The notes below the pieces were generated by a model. The model was given only the letters and a program-made list of their open reading frames with translations. It did no database searches and had not been told where the DNA came from. This document shows positions 1 to 55,974 of a stretch of DNA of 64,000 bases, piece by piece. The translations under genes and the position numbers were made by a program. Each line of letters starts with the position of its first letter. Position 1 is the stretch's first letter. The stretch comes from a virus (taxonomy: Duplodnaviria > Heunggongvirae > Uroviricota > Caudoviricetes): positions 72,935 through 136,934 of IMG/VR virus record IMGVR_UViG_3300010163_000004, one strand, 5' to 3'.

Positions 1-298
1 TACAGCCTTTCTTAGCGTATAAAGAAATGTATTTAATTTCCATCTGCTTTATCTCCTTAGGGTTATTCGTTTCATCCACTAATTCGATTTTTGGCCTAGA
101 ATTGAGACTTAGTAACTTATTAATCCATCTATTTTTATGTGTGTGCTATTGTTTAGTATCATGTTTAGCTTCTGTGACATGATTACTTAGTCTATCTGAC
201 AATGTTTTATTAGTCCATCCTATATAGCGAACATAATTTCGCTCATCCTCAGGACTAATAGTTGGGTCCACTAATCGGTAAATTTTGTACTTTAGCAT
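1..298 (-). CDS. GIY-YIG homing endonuclease, 5' part (ATG at 298, extends beyond window start). Contains an in-frame TAG, so it is TAG-recoded.
   Basis: Minus-strand translation gives MLKYKIYRLVDPTISPEDERNYVRYIGWTNKTLSDRLSNHVTEAKHDTKQ[TAG]HTHKNRWINKLLSLNSRPKIELVDETNNPKEIKQMEIKYISLYAKKG. This is the canonical GIY...YIG motif pair. Not in the ORF track because of the TAG. Confidence 0.75.
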
Positions 299-610
299 AA
301 TATTAACTGATTATTAAATTTATACTAAAATTACATATTCTATTTGGCATTTCCAAATAGAGGTGACGAATTCTCCGTTTGTACTCCGCAACAACGCGGA
401 TAGTCGTTGAACCTTATTCTAGTTACCCAATAACTAGAATCTTGGATGCTGATTGCCTATTACATTAAATACTTAGACGTCTTCTCAGATTGTCATATAT
501 CATCCTTTAAATTTTTTCTGAATTTCTTCGACATTCACACCTACTCTTACGAGTTATGTTGTAGTTTTAAAGGCTTTAAGGTATTCCAGCAGTTAACCAA
601 ATAAGGGCAA

Positions 611-721
611 GTTATTTACCCGTAGTACTTATAATAAAAGTAGTTTCGGGATTAAGATTTCTTAAACTTGTACTTTTTCCAGTACCTGATTCACCTACGA
701 TAGCAATTGTTTCAGCAGCCA
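611..721 (-). pseudogene. Truncated P-loop NTPase ORF (36 codons, Walker A GESGTGKST) ending at TAA. Possibly exon 1 of an intron-interrupted gene.
   Basis: ATG at 721-719 overlaps the stop of the upstream helicase (TAATG). Translation is MAAETIAIVGESGTGKSTSLRNLNPETTFIISTTGK*. No continuation is found in any frame before the homing endonuclease at 298. Confidence 0.45.
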
Positions 722-1816
722 TTATTCTAATGCAAAATTAAAATTCGAATTTGAATTATCTAATTCTGTAATATCATCTAGCTCCTGTTCTACAATAGAA
801 CTATTATCTTCTAATATATAGTTTGGACTTGTATATCTCTCATAATCATAAATTTCATCGGGCTTTGGTAGCTCGTGGAACATATTAATCCATCCAAAGA
901 AGTTTACTCCAACCTCAACATCGCAATCCCCATATCGGTTCTTAAGTACCATAATACTCCTATAATAAGAGCCTAGGTACTCAATATTGTAATGTTTATA
1001 AGTTTTCAATCCATCTCTGTGAGGATTATACAATGCAATCATGATATTACAATCTTGCACAGTATTACCTGAATCCTTAGCATCGTGAATAGTAAACGCA
1101 CTTTTGCCTTGCTTAAACCTCTCAATATTTCCTTGTTCTCTATTAGCTTGCTGTATTACTACAGGACTAATAAAACACTTATCTCTAAGAAAGAGAAGAT
1201 AGCTGGACAATAAATCAATATCGGGCTTTGTACCAACAAGACCAATATGGTCTACAACTACATTATAAATAAGATTAGGATTATTCGGAGTATAGACGAG
1301 GCGGGTTTCACTTTCAGAAAAGGTTCCCATTTCCTCCAACCTAGTTTTCAAGATGGCATATACCTTCTTCGGAGTTACCTTCTTGTCATAGATTTCTAAC
1401 TTCTTACTAATCTTATCTATCCAAGGCATACATTGCTTAACTAAGTCATAATGCTCGTCAGATAAAACATATTCCTTCTCTCTTGATAGTATCTTCTTAA
1501 AAGATAGTTGGATTCCATAGGTCTCAAATATATATATGGATAATAGCTTAATATACAAAGCTACTTCTCCCATTTCAAGACTGAAATACAATACCTTAAA
1601 ATCATCATCATCAAGATGTTTCATTAATGGTCGATATACATAAGCATATAAGGCAAACGAAGTCTTACCTGCACCAGAGTTTGATAAAATCAAAGTATAG
1701 GTTTCCCTAGTAACTCCGTCAATAATACTCTCCAGCTTAGGAAGTTTCATAGAAATACCATGATTTAGTCCCTGTCTACCCCTATCAATTTCATTGAGAA
1801 GTTTATCAGAAATCAT
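722..1816 (-). CDS. DnaB-like replicative helicase (RecA-fold C-terminal domain)
   Basis: ORF track, 364 aa. Walker A LILSNSGAGKTSFALY, Walker B-like VVVDHIG, and a DnaB/T7 gp4-like layout. Confidence 0.7.
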   Translation of the reverse strand: MISDKLLNEIDRGRQGLNHGISMKLPKLESIIDGVTRETYTLILSNSGAGKTSFALYAYVYRPLMKHLDDDDFKVLYFSLEMGEVALYIKLLSIYIFETYGIQLSFKKILSREKEYVLSDEHYDLVKQCMPWIDKISKKLEIYDKKVTPKKVYAILKTRLEEMGTFSESETRLVYTPNNPNLIYNVVVDHIGLVGTKPDIDLLSSYLLFLRDKCFISPVVIQQANREQGNIERFKQGKSAFTIHDAKDSGNTVQDCNIMIALYNPHRDGLKTYKHYNIEYLGSYYRSIMVLKNRYGDCDVEVGVNFFGWINMFHELPKPDEIYDYERYTSPNYILEDNSSIVEQELDDITELDNSNSNFNFALE

Positions 1817-2418
1817 AGTAATCTCATAGAATCATAATTAACTCCACCTTCATTCTTTAATGCTTCTAGTTCTTCCCACTTATGGTCTATTACAAAATTA
1901 GCTATTGTGGTACACAATATATTGTGTTCGCTAGCCCACTTAACTAACTCCATAATATGGTTATGAGTTTCTGGCTTCCATCTGATAGTTCTACCATAAA
2001 ACCTATAGAAGTCTTCAATTGTATCAAATTTCTTAGATACACTTTTCAGACCTACTTGTGTATTATTAACTATTCCAAATAATGGATAAGTATCCCACAA
2101 TTCCTTACCTAAGTCAAATGAACACTTATAAAAGTCTTTCACAATTAACTTATTTAGAGGAACATCTAGTGGATTAAATACAGATCCTTTCTCAGGAATT
2201 TTATAGGATTTATGTATAACTCCAGCATCGCGAAGTCCAGTTAATAGTTCTACTGTAAAACCACGAGCGCATGCTCTAGAAGAGAAATACTCGTGGACAA
2301 TTTCGGGTTCATCACCCTCTTGGGCGATAAGAAGAATTTCTAACAACAACAGCTCACTTGGGTTTATGCTATATTTTTCACAAAACGAAAGTTGCTGTTT
2401 TAGTTCAAGATTTTTCAC
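1813..2418 (-). CDS. hypothetical protein (201 aa), 4-nt overlap with the helicase
   Basis: ORF track. Start of the downstream gene overlaps this stop (ATGA). Confidence 0.6.
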   Translation of the reverse strand: MKNLELKQQLSFCEKYSINPSELLLLEILLIAQEGDEPEIVHEYFSSRACARGFTVELLTGLRDAGVIHKSYKIPEKGSVFNPLDVPLNKLIVKDFYKCSFDLGKELWDTYPLFGIVNNTQVGLKSVSKKFDTIEDFYRFYGRTIRWKPETHNHIMELVKWASEHNILCTTIANFVIDHKWEELEALKNEGGVNYDSMRLL

Positions 2419-2675
2419 GTGTACAAATTAATAGATTTTCTACTAATCTATACACCAAGTCTAGTTTACTTGTTAAAGCGTTAAAACTTGGTTACGTGAT
2501 AAACTTTAGTCCTCAACTCTTTCGCTGGCAGTTTCAAGAAGTACTGTATAGTCCTTCTTTAATTCCCTCAATTCAGCGGTAAGCTTACTAACCTTAGTTT
2601 CTAATGCTTTGCACTTCTTAGTCAAAGCGGACTTCATCTCATTAAACTCTTTTTTGGTGTAATAAGTTTCCATAA

Positions 2676-3953
2676 TTAAAAACGATAGGTAAAATTTTGT
2701 AATTTTTTCTTGTAAGGTTCCCAAGGCTCTCCATTAAGTAACTTTCGTAAGTTATCTACATCAATAGTAACATACTCGCTCTTTTGATGAGACTTCTTAA
2801 ACCATTCTTGTTCAACGGTATCTTCCAGCACTAATGTGAATATTTCAGAGTATTTAGAACCTTCTTTTCTAATGACCCTACCAGCGGCTTGAGTGCTTTT
2901 TGTGCTACTAGAGTCAACTCCAAGCATTATCCCAACCGATAGACCAGGACAATCAAAACCTTCAATAGCCAATTTACAGCTATTAATCACGCCCTTGTCT
3001 AGTAGGGCGAACTCCTCAAGTGTAATTCTGTTTTGTTTTTTACTTTCTTTGCCAGTGTAAACATATCCTACTCCTATCTTCTCTGCCATTGCAGTATTAG
3101 CAGAGAATGTAATAATTTTCTTGTCTGCTCTATGAGCAATAATCTCCCTAGCTACTTCCAATTTAGCCGGATGATTATGGATAAACTTTTTTCTAGCTTG
3201 TAACGCTCTCATAAAAGCCGTAGAATGAAAGGTAATCTGCTTCAAAGCATTTGACAGCTCAGCTTTATCCGAACTACTACAAATCTGGTTTCTGTAATTA
3301 AGCCTATTTCTGAGGCCGTCTTTACCAACCATACTCATTGCGAGTCCAAAATCAAAGTTAAAGAATTCAAAATGTCTTATAAATTCCCTATTTTGCTCTC
3401 GATAGCTTTCGATGTCTTCTGCTGTGATAATTACTTGATATTCAGTAAAATCAGATACCCAACCATTGGCTTTGGCTACTTCAATAGTTACACTATCAAC
3501 TACAGGGCAATATTTCTCAACTATAGTATGTCTACCATCAAGTCTTTCCAGAGTAGCAGTTAGTCCAAGAATTAACTTGTATTTAACCTTACTAAATACA
3601 AATTGTAAAGTCTCAGCAGCAGTCCTATGGATTTCATCAATGATTAAAAAGTCACATTCGTATCCATTCTTTGCTGTAGTATTTACAACTTGTACCTCTG
3701 TATTTAACCCTAGACCTTCCTTATCTAATATATCTATCCACTGATTCTTCAAAAGTTCTGTGGGGACTACTATCAATGCTCTAATAGTAGGATATTTAGA
3801 TAGAACAGCCTTTAAACAATTAATAGCACACCGTGTTTTACCAAAGCCTGTACAGGCTTCTATAGTGCCTTTTCCCTTATGTAATAACCAGGCTCTCTTA
3901 CACTGCTCCTGCCGCTCGTCACGAGTAACAGGAGTAAAGAGGTCTTTCATCAA
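2676..3953 (-). CDS. Superfamily 2 DNA/RNA helicase (DEAH-like)
   Basis: 425 aa. Motif I ACTGFGKT, motif II IIDEIH, motif III LGLTATLER, motif VI QAAGRVIRK. Confidence 0.8.
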   Translation of the reverse strand: MMKDLFTPVTRDERQEQCKRAWLLHKGKGTIEACTGFGKTRCAINCLKAVLSKYPTIRALIVVPTELLKNQWIDILDKEGLGLNTEVQVVNTTAKNGYECDFLIIDEIHRTAAETLQFVFSKVKYKLILGLTATLERLDGRHTIVEKYCPVVDSVTIEVAKANGWVSDFTEYQVIITAEDIESYREQNREFIRHFEFFNFDFGLAMSMVGKDGLRNRLNYRNQICSSSDKAELSNALKQITFHSTAFMRALQARKKFIHNHPAKLEVAREIIAHRADKKIITFSANTAMAEKIGVGYVYTGKESKKQNRITLEEFALLDKGVINSCKLAIEGFDCPGLSVGIMLGVDSSSTKSTQAAGRVIRKEGSKYSEIFTLVLEDTVEQEWFKKSHQKSEYVTIDVDNLRKLLNGEPWEPYKKKLQNFTYRF

Positions 3954-8577: not shown

Positions 8578-9007
8578 CTACTACATATTTTAAGATTTCA
8601 TAACTTTCTTCCAGACCTGCCCTATCATCTAGGAGAATATTGTAATAAGGTTTCTTAGATTTAGAGAATATAGAACTACTAATATTTGGAGCAGATAAAG
8701 TATTAGGAGTAATATTTGCTATCCCTACTCGCATACAAATTGTCTGCTTTACCATAATTTCATAATCATCTTCATCAGTGGTGAATAAAATCATTTCAAA
8801 ACCTAGAAGTGAGCATTCTTTAAGTAGTTCTATAACGCAACTATAATCTCCTCCATTATTATGGTAATCGAAAATAGTATTATCAAAATCGAAAGCGACT
8901 ATTAGCTTTCCGTATTTATGGTACTCTTCTAATAGTCGTTTCTTGCAAGCTTCTTTCCCAAAAGGATGATTAAAGTCCATTGTCAATTCTTTGTCTGATT
9001 TCTTCAA
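8543..9007 (-). CDS. HAD-superfamily phosphatase-like protein
   Basis: 154 aa. DxDxT motif VAFDFDNTIFD near the N-terminus. Confidence 0.5.
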   Translation of the reverse strand: MKKSDKELTMDFNHPFGKEACKKRLLEEYHKYGKLIVAFDFDNTIFDYHNNGGDYSCVIELLKECSLLGFEMILFTTDEDDYEIMVKQTICMRVGIANITPNTLSAPNISSSIFSKSKKPYYNILLDDRAGLEESYEILKYVVDEIKLNQQGNQ

Positions 9008-10523
9008 GAGAATATTCTTTCTTCAAGATGCCATCTTCAAAGACGGTCTCTAAGTATCCCTCTTTTTCCTCCTCGATTGAGACCTGGTCGGTAGCAGTAT
9101 ACTTCCCATCCAAACCTTTATAGACAGCAATCAAACCTTTCAAAGAGTTCTTAGTACCATCATCAGTTTTAGGATGTTTGAAGATTTCTTTCAACTCGCC
9201 ATTTACTACGCAAGCAGTAGCCTTAATAGCAAACCCAAGGCTATCTCTACTTGCATACTGATAGGAATATGAACCTACTCCCAGAACGAGATTACAAGCC
9301 GCCATATGAGCGTTTTCCAATCTCAAGTAGATTTGCTTTTGACGTTCCAGAGTAATAGAATCTCCATAAAGCAGACCAACCTTAGTGCTAGGATAGCAGT
9401 AATCCTTCGAAGTAGTATTCCACCCGAAGATTTTGCCAAGCATATAATATGCTCCATAATATTGACCTTCAGATACTTCAACATACTCTGCATCGTCATT
9501 AAATGGAGCATAGCAGCAATAATACTTACCTTCTTTCATTCTAGTATTGAAATGGGGATTAGTTCTCAATCCACAGATTATATCTACTGGGTCTCCACTA
9601 TCAGGACGGATTACTACTCTACCATCACGAGCCATAATGTCTTTTTTCAACTTGGGCAAGAAATTTTCAATTACATTCCAGAAATCCCAAGTATCAGATA
9701 CAATAGAAACAAACCCAGAAGGATACAAATCATTAATTAGACGTTTGAAAGTACCTAGCTCATCTTCCTCCCCTCCAGCACACATTACAGAGTGTTCTGT
9801 TGCTGGAACTGTAGCAGCAATCAATTCCTCGTCTGAATTAGCTCCATAATATTCTTCCAGAGCAGCAATAGCTGGGATAGTCTCACTTCCCACAAAAGAA
9901 GTCATATGTGCCATACCAGATATGATTGCAGCCTCCATACCAGCCATACCTCGCATTGAGAAATCATGGCAGCAAAAACTAAGATTTACATCTGTTGGAA
10001 AACCAGTCTTACAGGCATGACGATGTAACTCTTTCTTATAGAGTCTAGCTCTAGTAGCAGATGTGCATGGCATCCACAGAGTACAACTAATAATAGTCTC
10101 TAGGTAATTAGTTAACCAAAAGAACTCAGGTAAGGTATTCGTAATGGTCATCATAGGAACCCGAATAGGGCACACAGAACCTTCAGGAAGAGCCTTTATA
10201 CGAATTGGTAGATACCCAAGGTCATATAAAGCTTCAATATGTCTGTACCCAACGGATTCAATACCAACAAAGTTGTATACTCTACGATAGAACATCTCCA
10301 CAGCTTCCCTCTTTGGCAGATTAAAGAAGTTTTCTTGAAACTGTTTAATGAGATATTCCTTGATTAGGTATTGAATACCAAATACTACTGAACCTTCGGT
10401 TGCTTCTGGGAAGTATTTATTACTTCTAGGAGTCCAGTTACTATAAACTTGTTCAGTACCTTCTGGGTACATTCTGTGATGGCTTAATTTGTAACCATCA
10501 GTATAACAAATAATTTCTTTCAT
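8970..10523 (-). CDS. nadV: nicotinamide phosphoribosyltransferase (NadV/NAMPT)
   Basis: 517 aa. N-terminus MKEIICYTDGYKLSHHRMYPEGTEQVYSNWTPRS is the characteristic NAMPT start. Length is typical. Lies adjacent to Prs. Confidence 0.8.
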   Translation of the reverse strand: MKEIICYTDGYKLSHHRMYPEGTEQVYSNWTPRSNKYFPEATEGSVVFGIQYLIKEYLIKQFQENFFNLPKREAVEMFYRRVYNFVGIESVGYRHIEALYDLGYLPIRIKALPEGSVCPIRVPMMTITNTLPEFFWLTNYLETIISCTLWMPCTSATRARLYKKELHRHACKTGFPTDVNLSFCCHDFSMRGMAGMEAAIISGMAHMTSFVGSETIPAIAALEEYYGANSDEELIAATVPATEHSVMCAGGEEDELGTFKRLINDLYPSGFVSIVSDTWDFWNVIENFLPKLKKDIMARDGRVVIRPDSGDPVDIICGLRTNPHFNTRMKEGKYYCCYAPFNDDAEYVEVSEGQYYGAYYMLGKIFGWNTTSKDYCYPSTKVGLLYGDSITLERQKQIYLRLENAHMAACNLVLGVGSYSYQYASRDSLGFAIKATACVVNGELKEIFKHPKTDDGTKNSLKGLIAVYKGLDGKYTATDQVSIEEEKEGYLETVFEDGILKKEYSLEEIRQRIDNGL

Positions 10524-10852
10524 GTTTTAAATATAATTATTTAATTTCAGCCATTTCTTATATCCATAAAACCACTGATTTCCTTTTCTAACTCTTAAAG
10601 AACCTGTATTAACAAATATATCTACAATTCCGTGATCTTGTGTATGTAAGCTATATTGTCCATATAATGGTTCCTCTATTTTAAGTATTAGCGGATTTTT
10701 ATTTAGTTTAGGAAGTAATTTACATTTGAATGAAGCTACTAGTATTTCCTTTCTTTTTGTCCTTTCTTCCTTGCGAGCTTCATTTATGTCTCTCCAATAA
10801 TCTCCTACGTCTCCCATAATATATGATTATAATTGTAATAACCCTATTTCTT

Positions 10853-12703: not shown

Positions 12704-13165
12704 CTATAATTTCTTTATGCAATTTTCTTTCTTAGTTTCATATTCCTGGCTGGCCTCTCTAGCTAACCTATCTGCGAGATTATTCATCTGAGAAAAGAAG
12801 TCTGAACTTGAAGTATGTCCTTTTACCCAACAAAAATCTATGTTAGAACAAAATTGTTTTGCCTTATCTAAGACTTTGTCATATAAACTCCATAACTTTA
12901 TATTCTTCTTTCTTTTCCATCCTTTAGTAGTACATCCTATAACGTACTGAGAATCTGAGTAAACAGTCAGAAATTCGATTTTACGACTTACTGCATTTAG
13001 AGCATAAATTACTGCTAACAACTCACATTTATTATTAGTAGTATTAGGAATCATTTTACTAAATTCATAGACTTTTTTACCATCTATTACGAACACAATC
13101 CCTATTCCTCCTGTGTTTCTAGAGGGACTAAAAGCTCCATCAGTAAAGACCTCTAGTCTACTCAT
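12704..13165 (-). CDS. rnhA: ribonuclease H (RNase HI). The ORF ends with TAG, followed 5 codons later by an in-frame TAA.
   Basis: 153 aa. VFTDGA...NNKCELLAVIYAL...TVYSDSQYV...WVKGH...LADRLA are the RNase H catalytic motifs. Confidence 0.85.
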   Translation of the reverse strand: MSRLEVFTDGAFSPSRNTGGIGIVFVIDGKKVYEFSKMIPNTTNNKCELLAVIYALNAVSRKIEFLTVYSDSQYVIGCTTKGWKRKKNIKLWSLYDKVLDKAKQFCSNIDFCWVKGHTSSSDFFSQMNNLADRLAREASQEYETKKENCIKKL

Positions 13166-13553
13166 TAGTGGTATTTACTCTCATATTAGTTCCAAGTAAT
13201 ATTGCTATCTTTAGCAAATCGTCTTGATTGTCACAAAATATATTATCTAAAATATAGTTTGCGTAATCAACAATTCTAACTCTCTTTCCTATAGCACCGT
13301 ATTTTTCGTTAAGCCATTTAAGCTGAGGGGCAAAATCTTCTAGGTCATCCCCTAAATGCCGTAAAGCCTTCCTAATAGGAACAGGAAACCACATTTTCTC
13401 TTTTATCCAGTCTAAATGACAATAACCAAACGCAAATGCTCTACTTAAATCCTTCTGAATAAACTCGTCTAACTCGAAATTTCTCTCATGCCTACCAGCT
13501 TCCTCGAAATCATCTTTCAAATCCTCACAAAAAATCTGATTAAATTTAATCAT
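13158..13553 (-). CDS. hypothetical protein (131 aa). Stop codon is TAG, with a backup TGA 5 codons downstream.
   Basis: ORF track. Stop checked by hand. Confidence 0.55.
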   Translation of the reverse strand: MIKFNQIFCEDLKDDFEEAGRHERNFELDEFIQKDLSRAFAFGYCHLDWIKEKMWFPVPIRKALRHLGDDLEDFAPQLKWLNEKYGAIGKRVRIVDYANYILDNIFCDNQDDLLKIAILLGTNMRVNTTNE

Positions 13554-13944
13554 AACTCCAAGTTTCTAGGCAAGCTATGAGTTCCAATATCCCATGTCTG
13601 CAAATAACCTTAAATGGTCCAGTAGCTATAGAAAGATAAGGATTTTTGTTGTCATTGTACAGCTTCATTACTTCTCTTAGTAATGTACTAGCATTTCTGG
13701 ATAGTTCATAAAGGGTAGGAACTCTGTATTCATGTGGATTTATGTACATTTTCCATGTACTTTTGCTTATACAGTGACCCTCGTCATCATATTCTCTATG
13801 ACTCTTGTTCCACTGCATATACTCCAGAACCTTATCAAAATCAAAGTTCTTCATAATGCTTTTGTATTGTTCCTCCAATGGGGGACAATCATCCTTTGTC
13901 AGGACCGTTCTTTTTGTTTTGCTCATTTTTGTAACAATTAACAA
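13546..13944 (-). CDS. hypothetical protein (132 aa)
   Basis: ORF track. Confidence 0.55.
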   Translation of the reverse strand: MLIVTKMSKTKRTVLTKDDCPPLEEQYKSIMKNFDFDKVLEYMQWNKSHREYDDEGHCISKSTWKMYINPHEYRVPTLYELSRNASTLLREVMKLYNDNKNPYLSIATGPFKVICRHGILELIACLETWSYD

Positions 13945-28300: not shown

Positions 28301-28762
28301 TTAGGTTGCTTTTATTTCTTTGGCAACCTTAACCATTTCGTTATATTTCTCTACTACCTTATTAAAGTCTTCTTCAGATATTTGAAAGACTTTGTGAGAG
28401 TTTTCATACCACTCTTCTTGACCAGGAAACCACATTATATTAATATATCTCTTCTTCTCTAATTCCATATGTACCTTAGATGAATCAATATAAACTGAAT
28501 AGGCATCCTCTTCAATTCTACTACTTTGTGGATCGGTTGGGTCGGATGTAAGTCTGAAAAACATTGTTGACATACCATTAAAGTCTATCTTGAAACACTT
28601 TCCTATATAGCTTTTAAGTAGTGCTTTATGTCTATTGTCGCTGTCTACCTTCTCTTGGCGTCTTTTACGTTCTTCTTCCTTAACATATTCATTATACTCT
28701 CTTAGAGTGCTATCTGGATACTTGTCCAGATATTCTTCTATAGGACTCTTTCTTCCCCACAT
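28301..28762 (-). CDS. hypothetical protein (153 aa)
   Basis: ORF track. Confidence 0.5.
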   Translation of the reverse strand: MWGRKSPIEEYLDKYPDSTLREYNEYVKEEERKRRQEKVDSDNRHKALLKSYIGKCFKIDFNGMSTMFFRLTSDPTDPQSSRIEEDAYSVYIDSSKVHMELEKKRYINIMWFPGQEEWYENSHKVFQISEEDFNKVVEKYNEMVKVAKEIKAT

Positions 28763-28763
28763 C

Positions 28764-29180
28764 TTATACTACTTTAAGATGACAATAAATACTAAATTCT
28801 GGAATCGGAATCCAAGTTGCAATACTATTGCTATCTACTGGTTTACCCTTGTTGATTGTACAAATAGTGATATGAGGTTTAGCATTTGCACAAGGTAGAT
28901 ATTGGTCTCCCAGTTCTACTCCAAAAGCTATTGCTTTCTCAGAAATTCCTATTTTATTTACAATTAATCGAAAATTACCATCTATACGATATTGTAGGTT
29001 ATTAGCCATCTCTTCTTCATGTTGATTTTTATGGAGAAGAGTGCAATGGTCTAAATAAATAGTACTTCCTCTCTGGAACACCAGATTGCAAATAATAGGA
29101 TTTCCAATAATAACTTGCATAAGTTCGTTTCTAGTTGGTTCATCTAAGAACAATCCAAAATACTGATAATTCATACTCAA
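28764..29180 (-). CDS. hypothetical protein (138 aa)
   Basis: ORF track. Confidence 0.5.
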   Translation of the reverse strand: MSMNYQYFGLFLDEPTRNELMQVIIGNPIICNLVFQRGSTIYLDHCTLLHKNQHEEEMANNLQYRIDGNFRLIVNKIGISEKAIAFGVELGDQYLPCANAKPHITICTINKGKPVDSNSIATWIPIPEFSIYCHLKVV

Positions 29181-40815: not shown

Positions 40816-41286
40816 TCTATAAAGATTAAAGTGTTATGTATTCTCAATTCTTCTTCGGAAACGGGAATTAACTTCCCAAATACCCGAATATACTTTTGTT
40901 CTTTAATTACTAATGTAGATGAAATCTCTGTAATCACTTCTATGTTCTCCTCATGAAATCTTTGGAGGTGCATTGCGTGAATCTTTCTTGACAACTCGTA
41001 GTTGTCTGATGAAGCAATCCTGTTCATCTTAAATCTCTTTCTCATGGTTTCTTATTTCTTTTTAATCCTGACTACCCAAAGATGGGCAGTTTCGTCTTAA
41101 TTTTTCAAAGACTCGTCAGAGGATTTTTTAAAATTTGCCAGTCTTCCAACTGGCTGTGCAGTGATACTTGGTAGGATAAACACCAAGCGGGACTACCTTG
41201 AACTTCCAGACCCCTCTTCTTTAGTTTCCACATGTTTCGGTGTTCATTCTTCATGTGCAATCTTAAGCTTGTCAAAAATGGCGAAG

Positions 41287-42135: not shown

Positions 42136-42916
42136 AGATCCTATCTATATCTAGAATAAGATAGGAGATTATTTCTCAGTTTTCCATGCTGAGGACGTTA
42201 TCAACGTTCGCGAAGCGGGAACACCAACGAAGTTGGTATTCCATCACTAAATTTATAGATAGCTAGTCTATAAACTTGCGAATAGATTCGAGATGGAAAA
42301 TGAACCCTTATGAGGTTCTCTCTTACTATCTAGCCTAAGATTATAAAGCGGCTTATACTCTGCAACTTCTAACATAATTGTATAACATATAAATATAGTA
42401 TATGTGCACACTCGATATACTAGCGACCTTTTTATTGCTCAACCTAATCAGTGCCAAATTAGGTATACTTCATCCATACTATAAGAGTAAGTTTGCGAAC
42501 CTCTTAATTCTTTCGTAGCAGTTATTTTTGAAGAGGGCTTTTCTGCGTAGCCCGACTTTTTAATGCTCTTATGAGCTTAGATAAATTTTGAGTCATTGTA
42601 TAGAGTATAAGTTATATAACTCCTACTCTGGCGGATTTTTTGAAAATCGGAAAAAGTCTGGAAATTAGGTGCACTTTGTTGTGGACAGTTTCTCTTCTTC
42701 CTTTGCCCAATTTCTGTGTTGAACATTGAAAATACTAAGACCAATCCATATGTAATTCTCTATCCAGGAATATATCTCAATACTAAGTGATTTCTGATAA
42801 GAAAATATCCACTTTTTAAGTGATAATTCTCACCGTTTTTCACTTTGTATCGAGTATAAGGACCGGTGACTAACCAATCCTTATACATTTTGCCCTTGAG
42901 AGTTACAAAACTCCGT

Positions 42917-43958: not shown

Positions 43959-44004
43959 AATATTTAAATTTATAGGGTAGGTCTGTCACCCCTACCCAAT
44001 GTTA

Positions 44005-44394
44005 CTAATATCCTGCAATAATTTCCGATAATATTGTAATGTTGCAATTATTAAATTCATTCATTTTTATATTATCCATAGAATTAGAATAAAAGTCTGT
44101 ATATTTAACTTTTGGAACAAATCTAACTCTGCGAAAATGAATAGTAAAAATAGTATTTACTAATCTTGTTCTTTTTACCGCTCCAAGAAAATGTATTGTG
44201 TCTTCTCCTAAAACAAAATTACTATTAGAATTTAACACATTTAAAAGTTCTTGATGCTGTTTGGTAATAAGCAAATATTTTACTGTTATTCCTTCGCTTA
44301 TTCTTGATGTTAAATGTAATTCAATCTTCATATTTATTTCACTTAAGTTTAGTAAAATTGTACGTTTAATTATTTGCCAAACGTACAAAAGCAC
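44005..44394 (-). CDS. hypothetical protein (about 110-129 aa)
   Basis: ORF track. Confidence 0.45.
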   Translation of the reverse strand: MLLYVWQIIKRTILLNLSEINMKIELHLTSRISEGITVKYLLITKQHQELLNVLNSNSNFVLGEDTIHFLGAVKRTRLVNTIFTIHFRRVRFVPKVKYTDFYSNSMDNIKMNEFNNCNITILSEIIAGY

Positions 44395-44401
44395 TAAAAT
44401 G

Positions 44402-44848
44402 TCATTTTACAAAATCAATGGTTGCTACCTTTGTAGTAAAGCTTTCGCCTTCAACTTTGGTAAATTCTTTTACTATCATAGGTTTCCCAGTAATGCCCTT
44501 AAATGCTTCATCATAAGAGGCATTAGGGTTTTTGTAAAATTTTTCTATTACCGTGCCCTTTGGTCTTACAAAATCCCCCCCATCTTTGGGTTTGGCTCCA
44601 CGTGTAAGCCATGAGACATAGAAAAATTTTCCTTCTTCTGTAACAACAAATTGGTATTTGTTGCTATTGAATTCGCGTTCGTAGATTTTGTAGTCCTTGG
44701 GAATAGTAAATTTCTCTCCTACTTCTATGTTTGCCAGTTCAGTAGGTGGCAAACTACTTTTCCCTGCTGTTGCAAAATCCTTGATTTGTGTACCCTGTGC
44801 CGCTGCGAGTGCTTCACCCGTCTCTCGGCGGTTTCTTTCTGTTGCCAT
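44402..44848 (-). CDS. small protein (148 aa), paralogue of 42917..43375
   Basis: See the paralogue entry above. Confidence 0.6.
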   Translation of the reverse strand: MATERNRRETGEALAAAQGTQIKDFATAGKSSLPPTELANIEVGEKFTIPKDYKIYEREFNSNKYQFVVTEEGKFFYVSWLTRGAKPKDGGDFVRPKGTVIEKFYKNPNASYDEAFKGITGKPMIVKEFTKVEGESFTTKVATIDFVK

Positions 44849-44920
44849 TGTTATAAAATTTATAATTATTACTCTTATATGGTTAGGGATTATATATATG
44901 GATATTTATTTTCCACTACG

Positions 44921-44933
44921 AACCCCAGGGGGG
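44921..44933. repeat. GC-rich motif AACCCCAGGGGGG, copy 1, in the divergent intergenic region
   Basis: Repeated at 45028-45039. Flanks the hairpin gtagtgg-tggaccg-ccactac. Confidence 0.5.
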
Positions 44934-45027
44934 TCTAACGTAGTGGTGGACCGCCACTACACTCACTCTATGAATTTTTGGAATCTAGGTAATTGCCCTC
45001 CAAATATAAAAGTCGGAATTTATAATA

Positions 45028-45039
45028 ACCCCAGGGGGC
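45028..45039. repeat. GC-rich motif AACCCCAGGGGG, copy 2
   Basis: See 44921-44933. Confidence 0.5.
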
Positions 45040-45257
45040 TATTTATATAAAGTACCTGTACCGGCTTTCCCCTTAATATATAAAATATGTATAATATTTG
45101 AATTAGAATTTTTTAACTTTGCGTTTAACTTTTCGGAGGTTATTGTTGTATATAACTAAAAAGAAAACAATTATGATTACAGACTTAGAAACATTGTTAA
45201 ATTAGGACTAGTTTAAATAGCTAGTTGAGGCAATTAATACGAATCAAGAATATTATA

Positions 45258-45575
45258 TGTCTGGTAATGGGCTAACTATTAAGTCCGAATCTACCGACGA
45301 TTCTTTGTTCTTATTAATATCTTATGAAAGATAGAAGGAAGAAAGCTGCCTAGCTAATGAAGAGGTAGACCAATTCCAGAAATATTTAGAATCTCTAGAT
45401 GATAATTTATTTATAGATGTATGCGAATATCTAGGAGAACTTGAAGTTCGTAAAATACAAGGATGCTTAGAAAGCAGTAAGTTAGAAACAGTAAGAGCTG
45501 GTATTGCTAAATTCAAAATGGCACTGTCAGATATAGCTAAAAAGAGAATTGAACAACTGAAAGCTTATGTATGAA
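45258..45575 (+). CDS. hypothetical protein (105 aa) with one in-frame TAG
   Basis: Hand translation: MSGNGLTIKSESTDDSLFLLISYER[TAG]KEESCLANEE...KAYV*. Confidence 0.45.
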
Positions 45576-45712
45576 TAGATTGCTCAAATGAGAATACTAT
45601 TAGCTAATATCAACGCTACTATGCAGGCTTTATTTCACGAAAATGAACAATTAAGAAAAGAACTAGAGAAATTGGCAGCAGAAAATAAATCTCTAAAAGA
45701 GAAATAAGTTAC

Positions 45713-45784
45713 TGCCCTATGGTGTAATGGTCAGCACAGATGACTCTAAATCATTTAGTCTGGGTTCGAATCCTAGTAGGGCAA
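45713..45784 (+). tRNA. amber suppressor tRNA (anticodon CUA), derived from tRNA-Gln. Predicted to decode UAG as Gln.
   Basis: Cloverleaf: acceptor TGCCCTA/TAGGGCA (U1-A72), D arm GTGT-AATGGTCA-GCAC, anticodon arm GATGA-CTCTAAA-TCATT, variable TAGT, T arm CTGGG-TTCGAAT-CCTAG, A73. D arm, 8-9, T-loop and discriminator are shared with tRNA-Gln(UUG) at 29745-29815. Confidence 0.85.
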
Positions 45785-45803
45785 CGCCAAAAAATTAATA
45801 GTT

Positions 45804-46031
45804 ATGATAAAATTAAATGAGAATTATGTAGTAACTCCAACAGGGGCTAAAACTCTTATTATAGAAGAGGGAGACGATTGGAATAAAGTTTGTGAGAAGG
45901 TAGTTGGAAGTAAGTTTGATTATATCTTTGTACCTCAAGAATTTGAGAATCAAGCCTGCTATTTTCTTCCACAAATAACAGTTCAAGGAAAACAGATAGG
46001 TAAGATATGTACTTATAAGGTATTGAAATGA
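45804..46031 (+). CDS. hypothetical protein (75 aa)
   Basis: ORF track. Confidence 0.5.
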   Translation: MIKLNENYVVTPTGAKTLIIEEGDDWNKVCEKVVGSKFDYIFVPQEFENQACYFLPQITVQGKQIGKICTYKVLK

Positions 46032-46342
46032 AACAGTGTGCAGTTGTATTAAATGGAAATGATGTTGTCAAAGTCTCTAATTTAAAGAGAAAATATGACA
46101 AAATAATGAACAATTCTAATATGAAAATATTGGAGGAATGTGATAAGGAAATGTTAGATGAGAAGTACAACTATTGGAATAGAACATTAAATAGAAATAC
46201 AGAAGAGGAGAAAAAAGAGGAGGCTAAGATGCACCACTTTAAAAATCCGAAAACTGGATGCTCTATAACAAGTATCTATCCAGATTTGGAAGAATGTAAA
46301 TCATATATAAAAGACTGGATAGATTATGTTAAACTTGATTGA
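46028..46342 (+). CDS. hypothetical protein (104 aa)
   Basis: ORF track. Confidence 0.5.
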   Translation: MKQCAVVLNGNDVVKVSNLKRKYDKIMNNSNMKILEECDKEMLDEKYNYWNRTLNRNTEEEKKEEAKMHHFKNPKTGCSITSIYPDLEECKSYIKDWIDYVKLD

Positions 46343-46565
46343 AAAATATAATGAACTTACTAAATCGGAATTAGAGGAACTAGCAGAAATAACACTATTA
46401 GCTACGGAATCTTTAATTAATACTATTGTAGAAGAAGGAAAACAAAACGAACAATGGTTCTTAGATTATCTAGACAACTTAAATAAGCTAAGTGTATCGT
46501 ACTAATATATCAGTAGCCACAGATACTACGATAGAGAAAGAATTATTAACAACAGTTTAAAGGAT

Positions 46566-46760
46566 ATGATAAATTATAAGAAAACAATAACTAATATTCA
46601 TGAGCTGCTTCCAGAGCTAGACTTGGATGCATTATTTAAAATAATGGAGGCTATAGTAGAAGAAACCACTATAACTACAAGTTGGCCCAATAGCATCCGT
46701 TCGGATAAACCTTATTGGGAAGAACCAAACAGGATCACTTGTACGTATAATAGTAAATAA
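46566..46760 (+). CDS. hypothetical protein (64 aa)
   Basis: ORF track. Confidence 0.45.
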   Translation: MINYKKTITNIHELLPELDLDALFKIMEAIVEETTITTSWPNSIRSDKPYWEEPNRITCTYNSK

Positions 46761-46803
46761 AAATAGGCGAGCCTAGACTTAATTGTCTAAGTTCGCCTAT
46801 TTT
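46759..46803. terminator. bidirectional intrinsic terminator: 10-bp stem AAATAGGCGA/TCGCCTATTT with a nested stem, flanked by A and T runs
   Basis: Seen directly at the point where plus-strand and minus-strand genes converge. Confidence 0.6.
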
Positions 46804-47460
46804 GTTATGCGTTAACTTTTAGATATTTTATCCATGAAAACATCTTTCTCTATCCTTCTAGATACTATAAATTGTCTTCATTCATATAAGCTTCTTCTTC
46901 AAAGCTTACATCTCTGTAGCAATCATTTTGAGAATCTTTAAGTCTTAATAGCCGTATAATTAAATACTCTAATCCATACCAGATATAGAAAGATGGAATA
47001 GCTAACCATACCTATTCTAATCCAAATAATATAGATATAAGTATTGCAAACGCTATTGCACATTCCAAAATCTATACTGAATGGATATTCTCGTGATTCT
47101 TATCCTCACCAGTTAAATCCGACTTAGTAAATATTAATCCAAACAGATTAATTACTTTATAGCCTCCAAACGGTATAATATTATTTTTAATTATCATATT
47201 ATATAATACCAATCATTACGTTCTATAACTCCTTTCTCCTTGAGCTATTTATTATCTAAATGATAATCTCCATTTCTAAAATTTAATTCATTCTTAGTAT
47301 AGTCCCAATAAAAATACCCTTTCCAGCCGGGGAGTAATAAAGTACGACCAGTAGCCGCATAAAGAGTTGCTCTATTATAGTCCATATTACTTATTAAATA
47401 TAAACAGTAAATAAAGATATATCTTAAGTATAAATTCTTTAATTAATTTAACTACAGCCT

Positions 47461-49129
47461 TCATTGCTTTCTTGTTTTAATTAATCCATAATTTCCTTTC
47501 TTTAATCTAGTAGTAGGAATCCATCCATTATCTAGAATAGATCTATGCCCACTTGGTTTATGTATCTTAGCTCCATCTTCGTGTTTCCATTTAGCTGCGT
47601 TTCTAGCAAAGTTAGCACGCTTCTTCTGAAGAGGAGTAGCATTAGGATTGTTTAATACAGATTTAGCATGTTCCTATACAGACTATCCTGCAGCCTTAGC
47701 AGAGGCTGTAAATTTACCTCTATTTTTCTCTTTAATATGAATGCCTGACCCGTTTTTAAAAATTGGACATCCAAATATTTTCATTTTACCTCCACTTTTA
47801 TGTTTTTTAGAAAGTCCTATTGAAGAACTTCCATAATGTCCTTTGTGACCTATATTTTTTAGTATATTATTTTTAAACATACCTATTAATTCTACAGGCT
47901 ATGTTCCTTCCTATCCTACAAATAAATAATGCCTAAAGCCATTATCATCCTATTTAATTCTAGCCCTTTCAGCTCCAGCATTAGCCCTAACTTCATTTTC
48001 TATAGGAAATTCCATTTCAAAATCTTTATTGGCAATAGTTTTTATTTCATTCATATATTCATTATATATTTTCTTATATTCAGAGCTATTTCCAGATAAT
48101 TTAGCAGCTTCTAACCTTTTGATATATTTATCTTTATTTACTTTCTAGCTAGCCATTAAAAATATATCGTGATCAGAAGACCCTCCAGTGAGATAACCCC
48201 ATCCCTTATATGGTTTTGACGAAGTAACAAAAAAATTATTTCCAGGCTAAGTATAAAAATTAAAATCATTGTCTTTTATAAACTAACGTCTAGTAGACTA
48301 ACCTTTCTTTATAGGTCTTCTGACAATTCCTATGTAGCCCTCTGGACTTCCATTAGTATAGCCAAAGGCAGTACCAAAGTCATTTGATGTATATAAAGCA
48401 TTTTCAAAGTCTTCCAGTCCTGCTATATTAGTTCCAGTACTATTTGGTATTGTTGTAAGTGCCTTTCTAGCAGCTTCTTCTGAAGGCATATCAGCAGGTA
48501 TAAATCCAAGCTTTTTAGCTTCTGCTATATCTACTCCTCTTACAAAAGTATTATGTCTATTTACTACATGATCTGTAACTCTATCTAATTGTGCGTCATT
48601 AAATACTATAGTAGCTTTAGGTTTAATATCAGTATAATTATACTATTTCATAAATTTTTTTAAATGATTATAGTCTAATATATTACCTATTAAATTATTT
48701 GGAATATTATTCTTAATATAATTCCATCCCCTCCTAACTAAAGGAGCACTTAATCCTGGAACAAAGGCTAATCCTGCACTTAGGGCAGCCTATCCATAAT
48801 TTCCTAATCTTAACTAATTTCCTATATCTGCTATATCAGCAGCAGTATCTAATCCCGGAATAAATCCAGTAGCAGTAATTCCTAGGTCTATTATATCATC
48901 TGTAGAAATACCAGAACTTCTAGGCCTTTTCCCAACTATAGTTACTTCATCTAGAGTATTATTCGGGGGACTATAAGTTACCTACTTTCCGGCTAATTCG
49001 GCAGCTTTTGCTTTTCTATCCATCCTCTAACTATATAACCTCTATCTAGTTATATTGTCTCCTTTCCAAAAGGCTTCTAATTCTTCCTTCGAGGCTTTAT
49101 CAAAATCAGGTATTGGCATATTTGTTCAT
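47461..49129 (-). CDS. TAG-recoded gene (about 556 codons, at least 14 in-frame TAG, ends at TGA). Product unknown, basic C-terminus. Possibly a virion or internal protein.
   Basis: Hand translation of the minus strand. ORF-track fragments 47683..47880 and 48298..48489 are pieces of this single frame. Confidence 0.6.
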
Positions 49130-49251
49130 TTTTATTATTTTAAGTTATTCTATTTTATATTAATTTGTATCTTACAAAGAATATTAATATACTTGAAAAG
49201 TATCAAATAAATATAGATAAATGTGATAAATGATTAAATGAATTATGACTA

Positions 49252-50166
49252 ATGGACAAAAGTAAAATTACAAAACAAAATGGGAACATAGCTTTCGAAG
49301 AGGAAGCTCATATTTATTATGATGTTACAAAGCCAGAACAGAAATTTATATCTGTAACGACTTTAATTCATTCTTTCACCCAACCCTTTGATAAAGAGTT
49401 CTGGTCAGCATACAAAAGTTTAGAAAAGCTTCTTAATAAAGATTCGTGGGCTATTGAGAAAAAGTCTTTACTAAATACTAAGAAATTTGATAGAACTTTA
49501 TTAGAATTACATGGGATTAGTGAAAATGATTTTAATAGGGAACAGCAAGCCATCTTAGATGCATGGGATATAGAGAACAGAAACTCTTGCGAGAGGGGAA
49601 CTAGAATACATGCAGATTTAGAAAACTCTTTTTATAAAAAGAAAAAGAACATTGATATTAGTAAGTTCGAAATAGGAGGCAAATTTGAATGCGAACAAGG
49701 TAGAACAACTCTAGACTTAGAGAATGGAATATATCCAGAATATCTGATTTCAAGAGTTTCGGATGATGGAAAGCTGAGATTAGCTGGTCAAATTGACTTG
49801 TTAGTTAAAAAAGGCAACAAGATTATCATAGGCGATTTTAAGACTAATAAGAAAATAGAAACTAAAAGCTTTTTCAATAGTAAAACTAAGTCATCTGTTA
49901 AGATGAAATATCCTCTAAACAATCTAGATGATGTTAACTATTATCATTACACACTTCAGCTTAGCACTTATGCTTGGATGGTTCAGAAGTATAACCCAGA
50001 ATTTGAGATAGAGGATCTGGTACTTATACATTTTGATCACAGCGATAACATGACAATATATCATGTTCCTTATCTAAAAGATGAAGTAATAAGAATGCTT
50101 TCTTTTTATAAGAAAGAATCTATATTGGCAGAAAATAAAAAGAAACGTCAACGTATTGAATATTAA
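49252..50166 (+). CDS. PD-(D/E)XK-family nuclease (Cas4, RecB or lambda-exonuclease-like fold)
   Basis: 304 aa. GQIDLLV ... IIGDFKTNKK fits the D...(D/E)xK motif. Confidence 0.5.
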   Translation: MDKSKITKQNGNIAFEEEAHIYYDVTKPEQKFISVTTLIHSFTQPFDKEFWSAYKSLEKLLNKDSWAIEKKSLLNTKKFDRTLLELHGISENDFNREQQAILDAWDIENRNSCERGTRIHADLENSFYKKKKNIDISKFEIGGKFECEQGRTTLDLENGIYPEYLISRVSDDGKLRLAGQIDLLVKKGNKIIIGDFKTNKKIETKSFFNSKTKSSVKMKYPLNNLDDVNYYHYTLQLSTYAWMVQKYNPEFEIEDLVLIHFDHSDNMTIYHVPYLKDEVIRMLSFYKKESILAENKKKRQRIEY

Positions 50167-50168
50167 TT

Positions 50169-50384
50169 ATGACACTAGAAGAAATAGAAGAAAGATGGAA
50201 AATATGCAGACGCTGTCCAATATGTAATCAAGAAGATGCAATATGTAATGGACAGTTGTATTTAAATCCAGAAAACAATGACATAAGCATTAGTCCAAAA
50301 GAAGGATATATAAAAGGATGTGGATGTCTTTTGGAATTAAAGATACCTAATGAGAAGAAGCATTGCCCTGCAAAGAAATGGTAA
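50169..50384 (+). CDS. small Cys-rich zinc-ribbon protein, tandem paralogue 1
   Basis: 71 aa. CRRCPICN...GCGCLLELK...HCPAKKW. Confidence 0.5.
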   Translation: MTLEEIEERWKICRRCPICNQEDAICNGQLYLNPENNDISISPKEGYIKGCGCLLELKIPNEKKHCPAKKW

Positions 50385-50611
50385 AGAAATGGATTAAAGC
50401 AATATTTACTAAACCTTTAGTAATATTAAAGAGCATATATTTCCATATATTTGGAATTAATCAAGATTTAGCAACCACAAGATTAAATATTTGTAGTGCT
50501 TGTCCTCATAAATTGCAGACTTCATTTGGAGAAGTATGTGAGGAATGTGGTTGTATACTAGAGAACAAAACTAGAATAGAAGATGAACATTGTGATTTAT
50601 GTAAATGGTAA
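50363..50611 (+). CDS. small Cys-rich zinc-ribbon protein, tandem paralogue 2
   Basis: 82 aa. CSACPH...CGCILENK...HCDLCKW. Confidence 0.5.
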   Translation: MPCKEMVKKWIKAIFTKPLVILKSIYFHIFGINQDLATTRLNICSACPHKLQTSFGEVCEECGCILENKTRIEDEHCDLCKW

Positions 50612-50619
50612 AATGAATT

Positions 50620-51222
50620 ATGGAAACTTTAAGAACAGAATTAAACAGTAATGAGAAACTAGCATTAGCTATGACTGGTATGGAAGGTACAGGAGAACAC
50701 TTTATCTTGAATGGAGAGGCTGCAGATAAAACTCTATTAAGAGAAAAACAGGAAAAATTCAATACAGCAGTAGATGAATTAGAAGATAAATTCTCTAAAC
50801 ATAATGCAGCTTTAGAATCTTACGCTAAATCATTATCTGAGGATATGAATGGTGTAGAAATTATGCCTATGTATGGGTATGCATTAATTAAACCTTTCGA
50901 ACAAAATCCGTTTCAAAAAATTAAAACTACTAAGAGTGGATTAATTACAGACTTAGGTGGATTTGCTCCAACATATAAATCTAATGAAACAGGGGAAATA
51001 GAAGAAGAACAGCAATTTATTAAAGTGGGTACTGTTATTGAGGTTGGACACAAGTGTGAGTTCTTAAAACCTGGAGATATAGTATTCTATACAATAGCTA
51101 GCGAGTGCATGGTTCCATTCTATAAGTTTGGATTTGTTGTAGTTAATGAGAACAGAATTATAGCTGTAGTTAACGAAAAGCTAACTGAAAGAAGAAACGA
51201 ATTGAAGTATGGAAACAATTGA
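50620..51222 (+). CDS. protein with a C-terminal GroES or T4 Gp31-like co-chaperonin fold (tentative)
   Basis: 200 aa. LIKPFE...KSGLITD...GTVIEVG...LKPGDIVFY resembles the GroES mobile loop and beta-barrel. Confidence 0.35.
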   Translation: METLRTELNSNEKLALAMTGMEGTGEHFILNGEAADKTLLREKQEKFNTAVDELEDKFSKHNAALESYAKSLSEDMNGVEIMPMYGYALIKPFEQNPFQKIKTTKSGLITDLGGFAPTYKSNETGEIEEEQQFIKVGTVIEVGHKCEFLKPGDIVFYTIASECMVPFYKFGFVVVNENRIIAVVNEKLTERRNELKYGNN

Positions 51223-51455
51223 TGAAAAAATTTACTTTAAGCCCGGAGATTGTGTTACTTTACGGTAGTGTAAAGTAATGCATTCTCCAGTTATGCTGGT
51301 TCTAAGAAGAGAAGCAGCTTTATTTAAAGATAACCAAGGATTACGAGGATTAAGATGTAGATGGTTTACTGATACTGGACTTATGTAGGAAGCAGTATTT
51401 AATACTAAGGACCTTTAGCTTGTTAGAGAGAATAAATAAAAAATATAGAAAAGCA

Positions 51456-52757: not shown

Positions 52758-52794
52758 TAAGATTATCTAATATATATGATAATGATTAATGATT

Positions 52795-53355: not shown

Positions 53356-53357
53356 TT

Positions 53358-55724: not shown

Positions 55725-55974
55725 GAGTTTAGACCCGGTTGGGTATAAAGTCTCTTTTAACTTTGATAGGTCAGAAATGCCATTAGTAATAATAGCAGAT
55801 TTACCAGACGAAGAATTTCTGCCATTTATTAAGGAAGAATTAAGAAGTAGGAAGTTACAAAGAGTTAAGTATTATAACGCTACTAAACTTCCTCCAGAAC
55901 AACATAATTTATGTTATGAAAGAGAAGGAATTAATAGACAAGACAAACGAGGCTATTGCGGAACTTGTATATGA
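55636..55974 (+). CDS. small protein in the +1 frame overlapping the terminase 3' end. Standard-code ORF 55513..55974; an internal Met start at 55636 is more plausible.
   Basis: ORF track. Overlaps terL by about 90-210 nt depending on start. Confidence 0.35.
   Translation: MMTHTELKQVILEYMRDLYKMEYIGGLDIESLDPVGYKVSFNFDRSEMPLVIIADLPDEEFLPFIKEELRSRKLQRVKYYNATKLPPEQHNLCYEREGINRQDKRGYCGTCI

Follow-up and report, generated by a model that had tools for sequence, protein, structure and literature searches.

Directly behind the gene for a replicative helicase, a phage genome fragment in IMG/VR carries an open reading frame (ORF) that begins as a Walker A ATPase and stops after 36 codons. Is this ATPase gene truncated, or does it continue on the far side of an intervening sequence? 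We asked this of a stretch of 64,000 nucleotides (nt) (record IMGVR_UViG_3300010163_000004, positions 72,935 to 136,934), referred to here as the window; all coordinates are those of the window, and the intron, ATPase, helicase and endonuclease features all lie on its minus strand. Comparison with related phages indicates that positions 1-617 are, with high probability, the 5' portion of a mobile group I intron, subgroup-IA-like in type, in a gene for a Sak4-like/AAA_24 ATPase.

An ATPase gene interrupted between codons 35 and 36

The helicase gene, an ORF at 722-1816, encodes a DnaB-like protein (Pfam DnaB_C, 39.7 bits against a cut-off of 27), and its TAA overlaps the ATG of the 36-codon ORF at 612-722. 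This short ORF encodes MAAETIAIVGESGTGKSTSLRNLNPETTFIISTTGK, ends in TAA at 612-614, and is followed by 313 nt (611-299) without a long ORF. An earlier note on this DNA had described both the Walker A ORF behind the helicase gene and a non-coding stretch of about 310 nt, and both were recovered here.

An intron-less allele shows what the gene looks like when intact. Searching phage records by megablast with window 1-3000 turned up a single contig, MT836666 from human faeces (L001), which is 97.6% identical over window 615-3000 and whose match ends at window 615. In this contig the ATPase gene runs on uninterrupted into a 231-amino-acid protein, MAAET…ISTTGKPLPFRAWKKKY…, and its codons 1-35 are 100% identical to the 35 codons at window 618-722, which we designate exon 1; these include the Walker A motif GESGTGKS and end with base U618. 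The three bases after GGT, AAA, are the same in the window and in L001. Because AAA is common to the intron and to exon 2, the splice site was placed with the help of the relatives, after U618. The intron sits between codons 35 and 36 of the ATPase gene (…ISTTG|KPLPF…).

The intact protein from L001 matches phrog_2872, annotated 'Sak4-like ssDNA annealing protein' (E=6.6e-58), as well as Pfam AAA_24 (37.7 bits, cut-off 27); the window itself holds codons 1-35 only. Judged by this full-length profile match in the intron-less orthologue, the host gene is a Sak4-like/AAA_24 ATPase. Its surroundings run in the order SNF2 helicase, DnaB, ATPase, primase, the same order as in the conserved replication block of crAss-like phages, where the ATPase has been named ATP_43b (PMC7886860).

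Two routes led to homologous introns. Homologues of the endonuclease fragment gave L012, L013 and L019, and a degenerate DNA pattern spanning P7 and P7.1 gave L014-L018 from IMG/VR and L020-L025 from metagenomes. Exact-protein look-ups with the helicase, a 201-amino-acid protein and a 50-amino-acid endonuclease fragment gave no record of any of the three. An exact intron 30-mer had no match in IMG/VR, and an exact window-specific 29-mer had none in the JGI metagenomes, so that the 3' half belonging to the window itself was not recovered. After removal of duplicates there were 12 distinct copies including that of the window, and each interrupts the orthologous ATPase gene directly behind the GGT of …(S/A)TG|KPLPF…. 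Both exons are present in eight complete copies (L012-L017, L019 and L021), with introns of 1104-1157 nt, and removing the intron from any of the eight yields an in-frame ATPase of 231-237 amino acids that is collinear with the intron-less protein. Ten copies extend to the 3' end, where the intron always closes with a terminal G before AA(A/G)CC. Thus, for the relatives, the group I layout proposed in the earlier note holds, with an in-frame exon 2 behind the endonuclease in eight complete copies; the window's own exon 2 lies outside it.

The copy closest to that of the window is L021 (NFZC01007729.1), which is the same variant. The two are 93% identical in the 5' part of the ribozyme and share an extra hairpin of about 55 nt, and the L021 endonuclease matches 92 of the 99 window residues. 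Its intron is 1157 nt long and ends …AAAACG|AAACCG. By this measure the window contains the 5' two-thirds of the ribozyme plus endonuclease codons 1-99, and about 540 nt of intron followed by a 196-codon exon 2 would lie beyond window position 1. We also considered whether the window might close on itself as a circle and rejected this: the minus strand at 62-64 kb carries neither a continuation of the endonuclease nor exon 2, and TAG-rich structural genes occupy the plus strand there instead.

The intron is a minority allele. All 80 of the 80 best IMG/VR relatives have an uninterrupted ATPase gene, as do all ten of the places shown (L002-L011, each with an intact 231-amino-acid gene) for an identical 287-amino-acid neighbour protein, which is very widespread, being listed in 8110 blocks of the collection. 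The window flanks are 97.4-100% identical to the intron-less L001 and 80-88% identical to L021, the nearest intron-bearing relative. Since the flanks are closer to the intron-less genome, presence of the intron does not follow the backbone, a pattern that homing or repeated loss would produce. A co-conversion tract was sought in exon 1 of the window and gave no signal, because this exon is identical to that of L001 and 96% identical to that of L021.

The covarying fold

To judge the fold, we aligned ORF-deleted constructs of the 12 copies (alignment A1) and counted pairs for a hand-drawn structure of 76 pairs in 13 helices (P1, P3, P4, P5, P6, P6a, P7, P7.1, P7.2, P8, P9, P9.1 and P9.1a). Standard pairs occupied 95.7% of 833 cells, compared with 37-44% when the partners were slid, and 29 of the 76 pairs were changed on both sides, compared with 2-8 in the slid controls. 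None of 500 shuffles reached the observed values for three of five measures. Changes on both sides occur in P3, P6a and P8, among others. As a single sequence, the intron region of the window folds with z=-2.14. The four classical group I elements are recognisable, with P (AAYUGCUGGAA), Q (AAUCAGCA) and R inside the window and S (AAGAUAUAGUCU) in the relatives. Covariation in P1, with its U•G pair, and across P3-P9.1 thus supports assignment of the structure to the group I introns.

The Rfam model Intron_gpI (RF00028) is consistent with this assignment. In a 1.2-kb search it matched window 342-602 with 25.6 bits (E=3.9e-4), covering model positions 49-158, that is P3 through P3'. Two relatives gave two matches each, collinear and flanking the ORF: 49.0 bits for the 5' piece and 24.0 bits for the 3' piece in L013, and 39.2 and 21.6 bits in L012. 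The 3' piece spans P8, J8/7, the AAGAUAUAGUCU element and P9. Whole-locus Rfam scans of L012 and L013 missed the intron, and a narrow search range was needed to find it.

P1 (603-623) is formed by exon bases 621-618 and intron bases 617-616, with UUGCCC (610-605) as guide. The pair U618•G608 marks the 5' splice site, and a U•G pair is present here in 12 of 12 copies. In the window, A623-U603 pairs past a C•U mismatch, and the in-frame TAA (614-612) that ends the short ORF lies inside the P1 loop. One P1 pair (A1 columns 9/27) is A-U in four copies, U-A in four and G-C in three, and the wobble base of the threonine codon covaries with the guide (ACAGGU/GCCUGU, ACUGGU/GCCAGU, ACGGGU/GCCCGU). The suggestion that the last exon bases form a P1 helix with a U-G pair at the splice site was therefore borne out, GGGU|AA (621-616) pairing with UUGCCC in a covarying helix.

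P1 leads directly into P3, in which AUUUGGU (596-602) pairs with GCCAAAU (342-348), in agreement with the Rfam alignment and with covariation. One P3 position is U-A in seven copies and C-G in five, and because of this switch we preferred P3 to a local hairpin at 338-362. That region had been listed as one of three inverted repeats, all of which are real. The repeat at about 420-448 corresponds to P6a and the one at about 375-397 to P7.1; the third does exist as a local hairpin (CUAUUUGG/CCAAAUAG, 360-340) but overlaps the 3' strand of P7.2 and P3'.

The P4-P5 domain (447-591) was modelled with RNAalifold on three long and eight short forms. P4, which comprises the classical P and Q elements, pairs 591-586 with 452-447 and is invariant. 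P5 pairs 581-579 with 458-456, P5a pairs 573-566 with 511-504, and the P5b hairpins occupy 559-520; an extra hairpin at 501-468 is found in the long variants only (the window, L021 and L023). RNAalifold reports 11 covarying pairs in the domain for the short forms and four for the long forms. P6 and P6a follow at 412-446, with P6a pairing 440-431 with 425-416 around a UUGGG loop. Three P6a pairs are changed on both sides, including an exchange of A-U for G-C between the window and L021.

The R element GUUCAACGACUA (400-412), made up of J6/7 and the 5' strand of P7, matches the Rfam consensus. The P7 strand GACUAU (405-400) pairs with AUAGUC of the S element in all 10 copies that have the 3' half; in the window this partner would lie beyond the edge. 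Between P7 and P3', the hairpins P7.1 (399-395 with 390-386) and P7.2 (380-373 with 362-355) take up 355-399 and fill a 49-nt insertion that sets these introns apart from the Rfam consensus. Two of five P7.1 pairs and four of six P7.2 pairs are changed on both sides. By these two hairpins the intron is subgroup-IA-like, a classification made at the level of IA.

The last helix to begin in the window is P8, whose 5' strand AGAAUA (336-341) has its partner UAUUCU just upstream of the S element, as seen in L021. This long-range P8 encloses the ORF, and five of its eight pairs are changed on both sides, as in the variants UUGAUA/UAUCAA, UUAGUA/UACUAA and AGAAUA/UAUUCU. The sequence expected for P8', J8/7 and P7' beyond the window is …UAUUCUAAAGAUAUAGUCU…. 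A local P8 hairpin in the 3' end of the ORF, as drawn by Rfam for L013, was considered as well and was dropped in favour of the long-range helix, given the covariation of the latter.

Taken together, these elements suggest how the locus would work. The ATPase gene would be co-transcribed with the helicase gene, and the intron would fold with P1 formed by the exon end CGGGU and the guide GCCC and with a core of P3-P8 plus P7.1 and P7.2. It would then excise itself by two guanosine-dependent transesterifications, joining GGU|AAA and yielding an ATPase of about 231 amino acids. The endonuclease encoded in the P8 loop (about 257 amino acids) presumably cuts intron-less alleles in mixed infections, and the intron would spread in this way by homing.

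The endonuclease and its TAG codons

The endonuclease ORF starts at 298 and runs off the window edge at position 1, so that the window holds its N-terminal 99 codons. In full-length relatives the protein has 257 amino acids when translation ends at the S-element UAG, or 262-263 when that codon is read through as far as an in-frame UGA, conserved in the P9 loop. The loop of P8 contains the ORF, whose last codons (…KGKYFI(K/L)KI) double as P8', J8/7 and P7'; compensatory changes in P8 alter the encoded C-terminal residues.

The earlier note had called this protein a GIY-YIG homing endonuclease with an in-frame TAG. The ORF and its TAG (146-148) stood, but the family assignment proved weaker. Pfam GIY-YIG (PF01541) scores 19.0-19.7 bits against a cut-off of 22.6, with E≤0.01 in only three of nine members. 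A second domain, PF22083 (I-HmuI_NUMOD-like, 36.5 bits against a cut-off of 27), is found in eight of nine full-length relatives, in the region beyond the window edge. Profile comparison by hhalign with a canonical GIY-YIG ORF elsewhere in the window (25512-26156) gave E=5.5e-6 and a probability of 85.7%, pairing RYIGWT with QYVGKT, MEIKYI with YEIQFI and TNATKGGDG with YNATRGGDG; the motifs YIG, Arg, Glu and Asn are aligned. The homologue P0001 is 83% identical to the 99 window residues, and its AlphaFold model has a predicted local distance difference test (pLDDT) score of 76-93, mostly 89-93, over residues 1-100. The four top PDB matches of this model in Foldseek are GIY-YIG nucleases, including the I-TevI catalytic domain (1ln0), with weak E-values of 0.1-0.9 and template modeling (TM) scores of 0.66-0.68 by target length. 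We describe the protein as a GIY-YIG-like/NUMOD endonuclease, using 'GIY-YIG-like' because the family match is below threshold.

Two further observations concern related ORFs. The canonical GIY-YIG ORF at 25512-26156 on the minus strand (MGYIYCITNLINGKQYVGKT…; Pfam GIY-YIG, 35.1 bits) has a NUMOD1-like tail and five in-frame TAGs, and lies within a tRNA cluster of the otherwise TAG-free minus-strand arm. In protein P0004, from an ENA contig of 748 nt, the endonuclease N-terminus is fused in frame to C-terminal residues of DnaB (…PDEIYDYQRYIDANYLLEQ…NFNFVL), a fusion that points to a chimeric assembly or else to a rearranged allele.

The TAG at 146-148 is also present in L021. Among the other copies, its alignment column holds Q in eight and H in one. 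More generally, the endonuclease ORFs contain 0-5 internal TAGs, aligned most often with glutamine; internal TAGs stand at codon 3, 15 or 50/51 in 10 of the 12 copies, and L015 and L023 have none. The window also encodes a predicted suppressor tRNA with anticodon CUA (45713-45785, plus strand; ARAGORN, and Rfam tRNA with 66.3 bits). On the plus strand at 44-64 kb, reading TAG as sense lifts the coverage by ORFs of at least 100 codons from 0.11-0.47 to 0.74-1.0. From the alignment with glutamine we predict that the TAG of the window endonuclease is read as glutamine. The large replication genes of the minus strand have almost no in-frame TAG, and the endonuclease is a TAG-containing gene within a TAG-free early gene. 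Because the ORF holds TAG codons, full-length endonuclease would require an active phage tRNA-CUA, as would the TAG-rich late genes.

The position of the ORF raises a further possibility. Since the ORF enters P8', J8/7 and P7' and nominally stops at the S-element UAG, ribosomes translating it would disrupt the fold of the catalytic core. As long as tRNA-CUA has yet to accumulate, early in infection, they might halt at the upstream TAGs and leave the core free to splice the ATPase mRNA; later, suppression might allow full-length endonuclease to be made, with the S-element UAG read through to the UGA of the P9 loop. We propose, tentatively and with considerable doubt, that the TAGs serve both as a timer and as a safeguard of the ribozyme, the code switch coordinating splicing with homing.

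TAG recoding extends well beyond the endonuclease. The structural arm (44000-64000, plus strand) is unreadable in the standard code; it includes a TerL-like gene (53340-55724) and a 748-codon ORF (55844-58087). Structural genes from 51.3 kb on have 4-28 in-frame TAGs each, and the tRNA-CUA gene lies near the head of this arm. Two minus-strand ORFs, at 13140-13664 and 28301-28957, have 4-5 in-frame TAGs each among TAG-free neighbours.

The window copy among its relatives and known introns

Several points weigh against our reading of the window copy as a functional, mobile group I intron. The 3' third of the ribozyme (P8', the S element with P7', P9 and the terminal G) and exon 2 are outside the window, and completeness of this copy is judged from L021. 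Splicing of the window copy, the activity and target of its endonuclease and the timing of expression are likewise what we infer from sequence. The Infernal check proposed in the earlier note did give a match at 342-602, but no RF00028 match attains the gathering score of 50, and the intron is missing from the results of a whole-window Rfam scan at E≤0.05. Because P4 and P7 do not vary across the copies, they carry no covariation information. Compared with its relatives the window copy has small defects, namely the C•U in P1 (common to L021), a C•A in P7.2 at a pair that is C-G in L021, and a shifted register in P6. Finally, the GIY-YIG match of the endonuclease is under the Pfam threshold (19.7 against 22.6 bits), and a PDB sequence-profile search with this protein returned chance matches only and no GIY-YIG protein.

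Some of these points would also fit an intron that is real but decaying in the window copy, with splicing impaired, or with the TAG acting as a genuine stop in an endonuclease pseudogene; in that case the phage would produce no more than a 36-amino-acid peptide, or very little ATPase. The mismatches absent in relatives (C•A in P7.2, and U•U in the P6 register of the alignment), a poorer potential for P10 pairing (ACUU in place of GGUU), the unseen 3' half, and the lack of internal TAGs in L015 and L023, by which a TAG is not obligatory in the ORF, all favour such decay. P10 is dispensable in many group I introns. Against decay, the window copy has 93% identity to L021, a complete copy that restores the ATPase ORF, and its differences from L021 include compensatory changes in P6a; the small changes specific to the window leave the core elements untouched, and every classical core element inside the window is intact. 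Likewise, the TAG column holds Q in eight of nine other copies and the TAG itself is common to L021, in a phage with tRNA-CUA and a late arm that reads TAG as sense. We therefore consider decay of this copy improbable. A free-standing homing endonuclease that truncated the ATPase gene, with incidental hairpins and no ribozyme, is highly improbable: phages often carry GIY-YIG genes of this kind (the ORF at window 25512-26156 may be one) and the Rfam score of the window is under threshold, but 12 distinct copies sit at one codon, 29 pairs in the flanking non-coding RNA show compensatory changes, excision is precise and in frame in eight of eight complete copies, and the Rfam matches are collinear in two parts. 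The two outcomes that the earlier note had named as speaking against an intron, absence of exon 2 and absence of a P3-P7 core, did not occur in the relatives.

We next compared the intron, read as a mobile group I element, with known systems. It resembles the subgroup IA introns of phages that carry GIY-YIG endonucleases (T4 td with I-TevI; Twort-like phages and other Herelleviridae) in its P, Q, R and S core, in having P7.1 and P7.2 between P7 and P3', in the U•G at the 5' splice site, in an ORF looped out from a peripheral helix, in the choice of a conserved DNA-metabolism gene as host, and in its presence/absence polymorphism among close relatives. The ribozyme part has 69-81% DNA identity to sequences in Herelleviridae of Staphylococcus and Brochothrix, for example to the region of Brochothrix phage A9 in which ribonucleotide reductase is fragmented. 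Unlike those introns, it interrupts a Sak4-like ATPase gene and uses TAG as a sense codon in its ORF. No P2 helix is evident, since P1 runs directly into P3, and the 3' end of the ORF encodes P8', J8/7 and P7'. The endonuclease also differs, being marginally GIY-YIG (19-20 bits) with an I-HmuI_NUMOD-like domain, and its ORF lies in P8, whereas that of the T4 td intron lies in the P6 region.

A closer parallel is found among the crAss-like phages. The Delta and Zeta groups have many group I introns, some of which interrupt ATP_43b, the ATPase gene, in the Delta group; crAss-like intron ORFs with recoded stops have also been described, the introns having been identified there through their endonuclease domains (Yutin et al. 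2021, PMC7886860). Endonuclease content varies between close Zeta crAss-like genomes (PMC12386605). The intron described here shares with these (PMC7886860; PMC12386605) the phage assemblage, the replication block and the recoded stops in intron ORFs. Beyond the published listing (PMC7886860), our analysis adds exact splice sites, a covarying fold, the location of the ORF in P8 and an intron-less allele; the intron itself may already be among those listed there.

Delayed synthesis of such an endonuclease has also been proposed before. In the TGA-recoded Agate phages, a group I intron endonuclease with recoded stops lies in an early, standard-code gene, an arrangement read as delaying synthesis of the endonuclease to late infection (Borges et al., bioRxiv 10.1101/2021.08.26.457843). 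By comparison, the recoded codon here is TAG, predicted to be read as glutamine, where in Agate phages TGA is read as Trp; the lineage is another one, and two of the 12 copies here lack an internal TAG. We conclude that published work already covers introns of this kind as well as recoded intron endonucleases in early genes, that the locus is an ordinary example for its phage group, and that it changes no principle. It does supply a case with TAG for the published view that recoded stop codons hold back the expression of intron endonucleases located in early genes. There is also a practical consequence: when intron and TAG recoding go unrecognised, a conserved replication/recombination ATPase is annotated as a 36-codon fragment next to a broken endonuclease. 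The 12 copies, with a matched intron-less allele, provide a basis for testing splicing and homing in abundant, largely uncultured phages of the human gut.

The phage itself is probably a large, TAG-recoding, crAss-like gut phage of Zeta-like type. Its TerL-like protein is 25-28% identical to those of crAss-like phages, the related contigs measure 175-193 kb, and the window has 22 tRNA genes. Members of the Zeta group have genomes of 145-192 kb, dense group I introns and suppressor tRNAs (PMC7886860), and we place the phage near them because its TerL, the 175-193 kb of its relatives and its 22 tRNAs fit that description.

A few other features of these genomes came to light. In L012, the SNF2 helicase gene is seemingly split (157-2654 of that contig) into a piece of 402 amino acids, a GIY-YIG gene of 281 amino acids (1461-2306) and an ORF of 34 amino acids; as the SNF2 gene of the window (2676-3953) is intact, the split probably represents a second intron that the window is without. 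On the minus strand, a near-threshold Rfam match to RAGATH-14 RNA at 42163-42370 (138.3 bits against 149.1, E=7.9e-25, full model) adjoins a tRNA gene, and a weak match to a type III hammerhead at 41084-41155 (28.9 bits against 48.5, E=0.046), about 1 kb from it, may be due to chance. The replication arm includes a gene for a 516-amino-acid nicotinamide/nicotinate phosphoribosyltransferase (NAMPT_N/NAPRTase; 8970-10526, minus strand), present in L002-L011 as well, and in the same phage group this arm also has OmpA-like and Band_7 genes.

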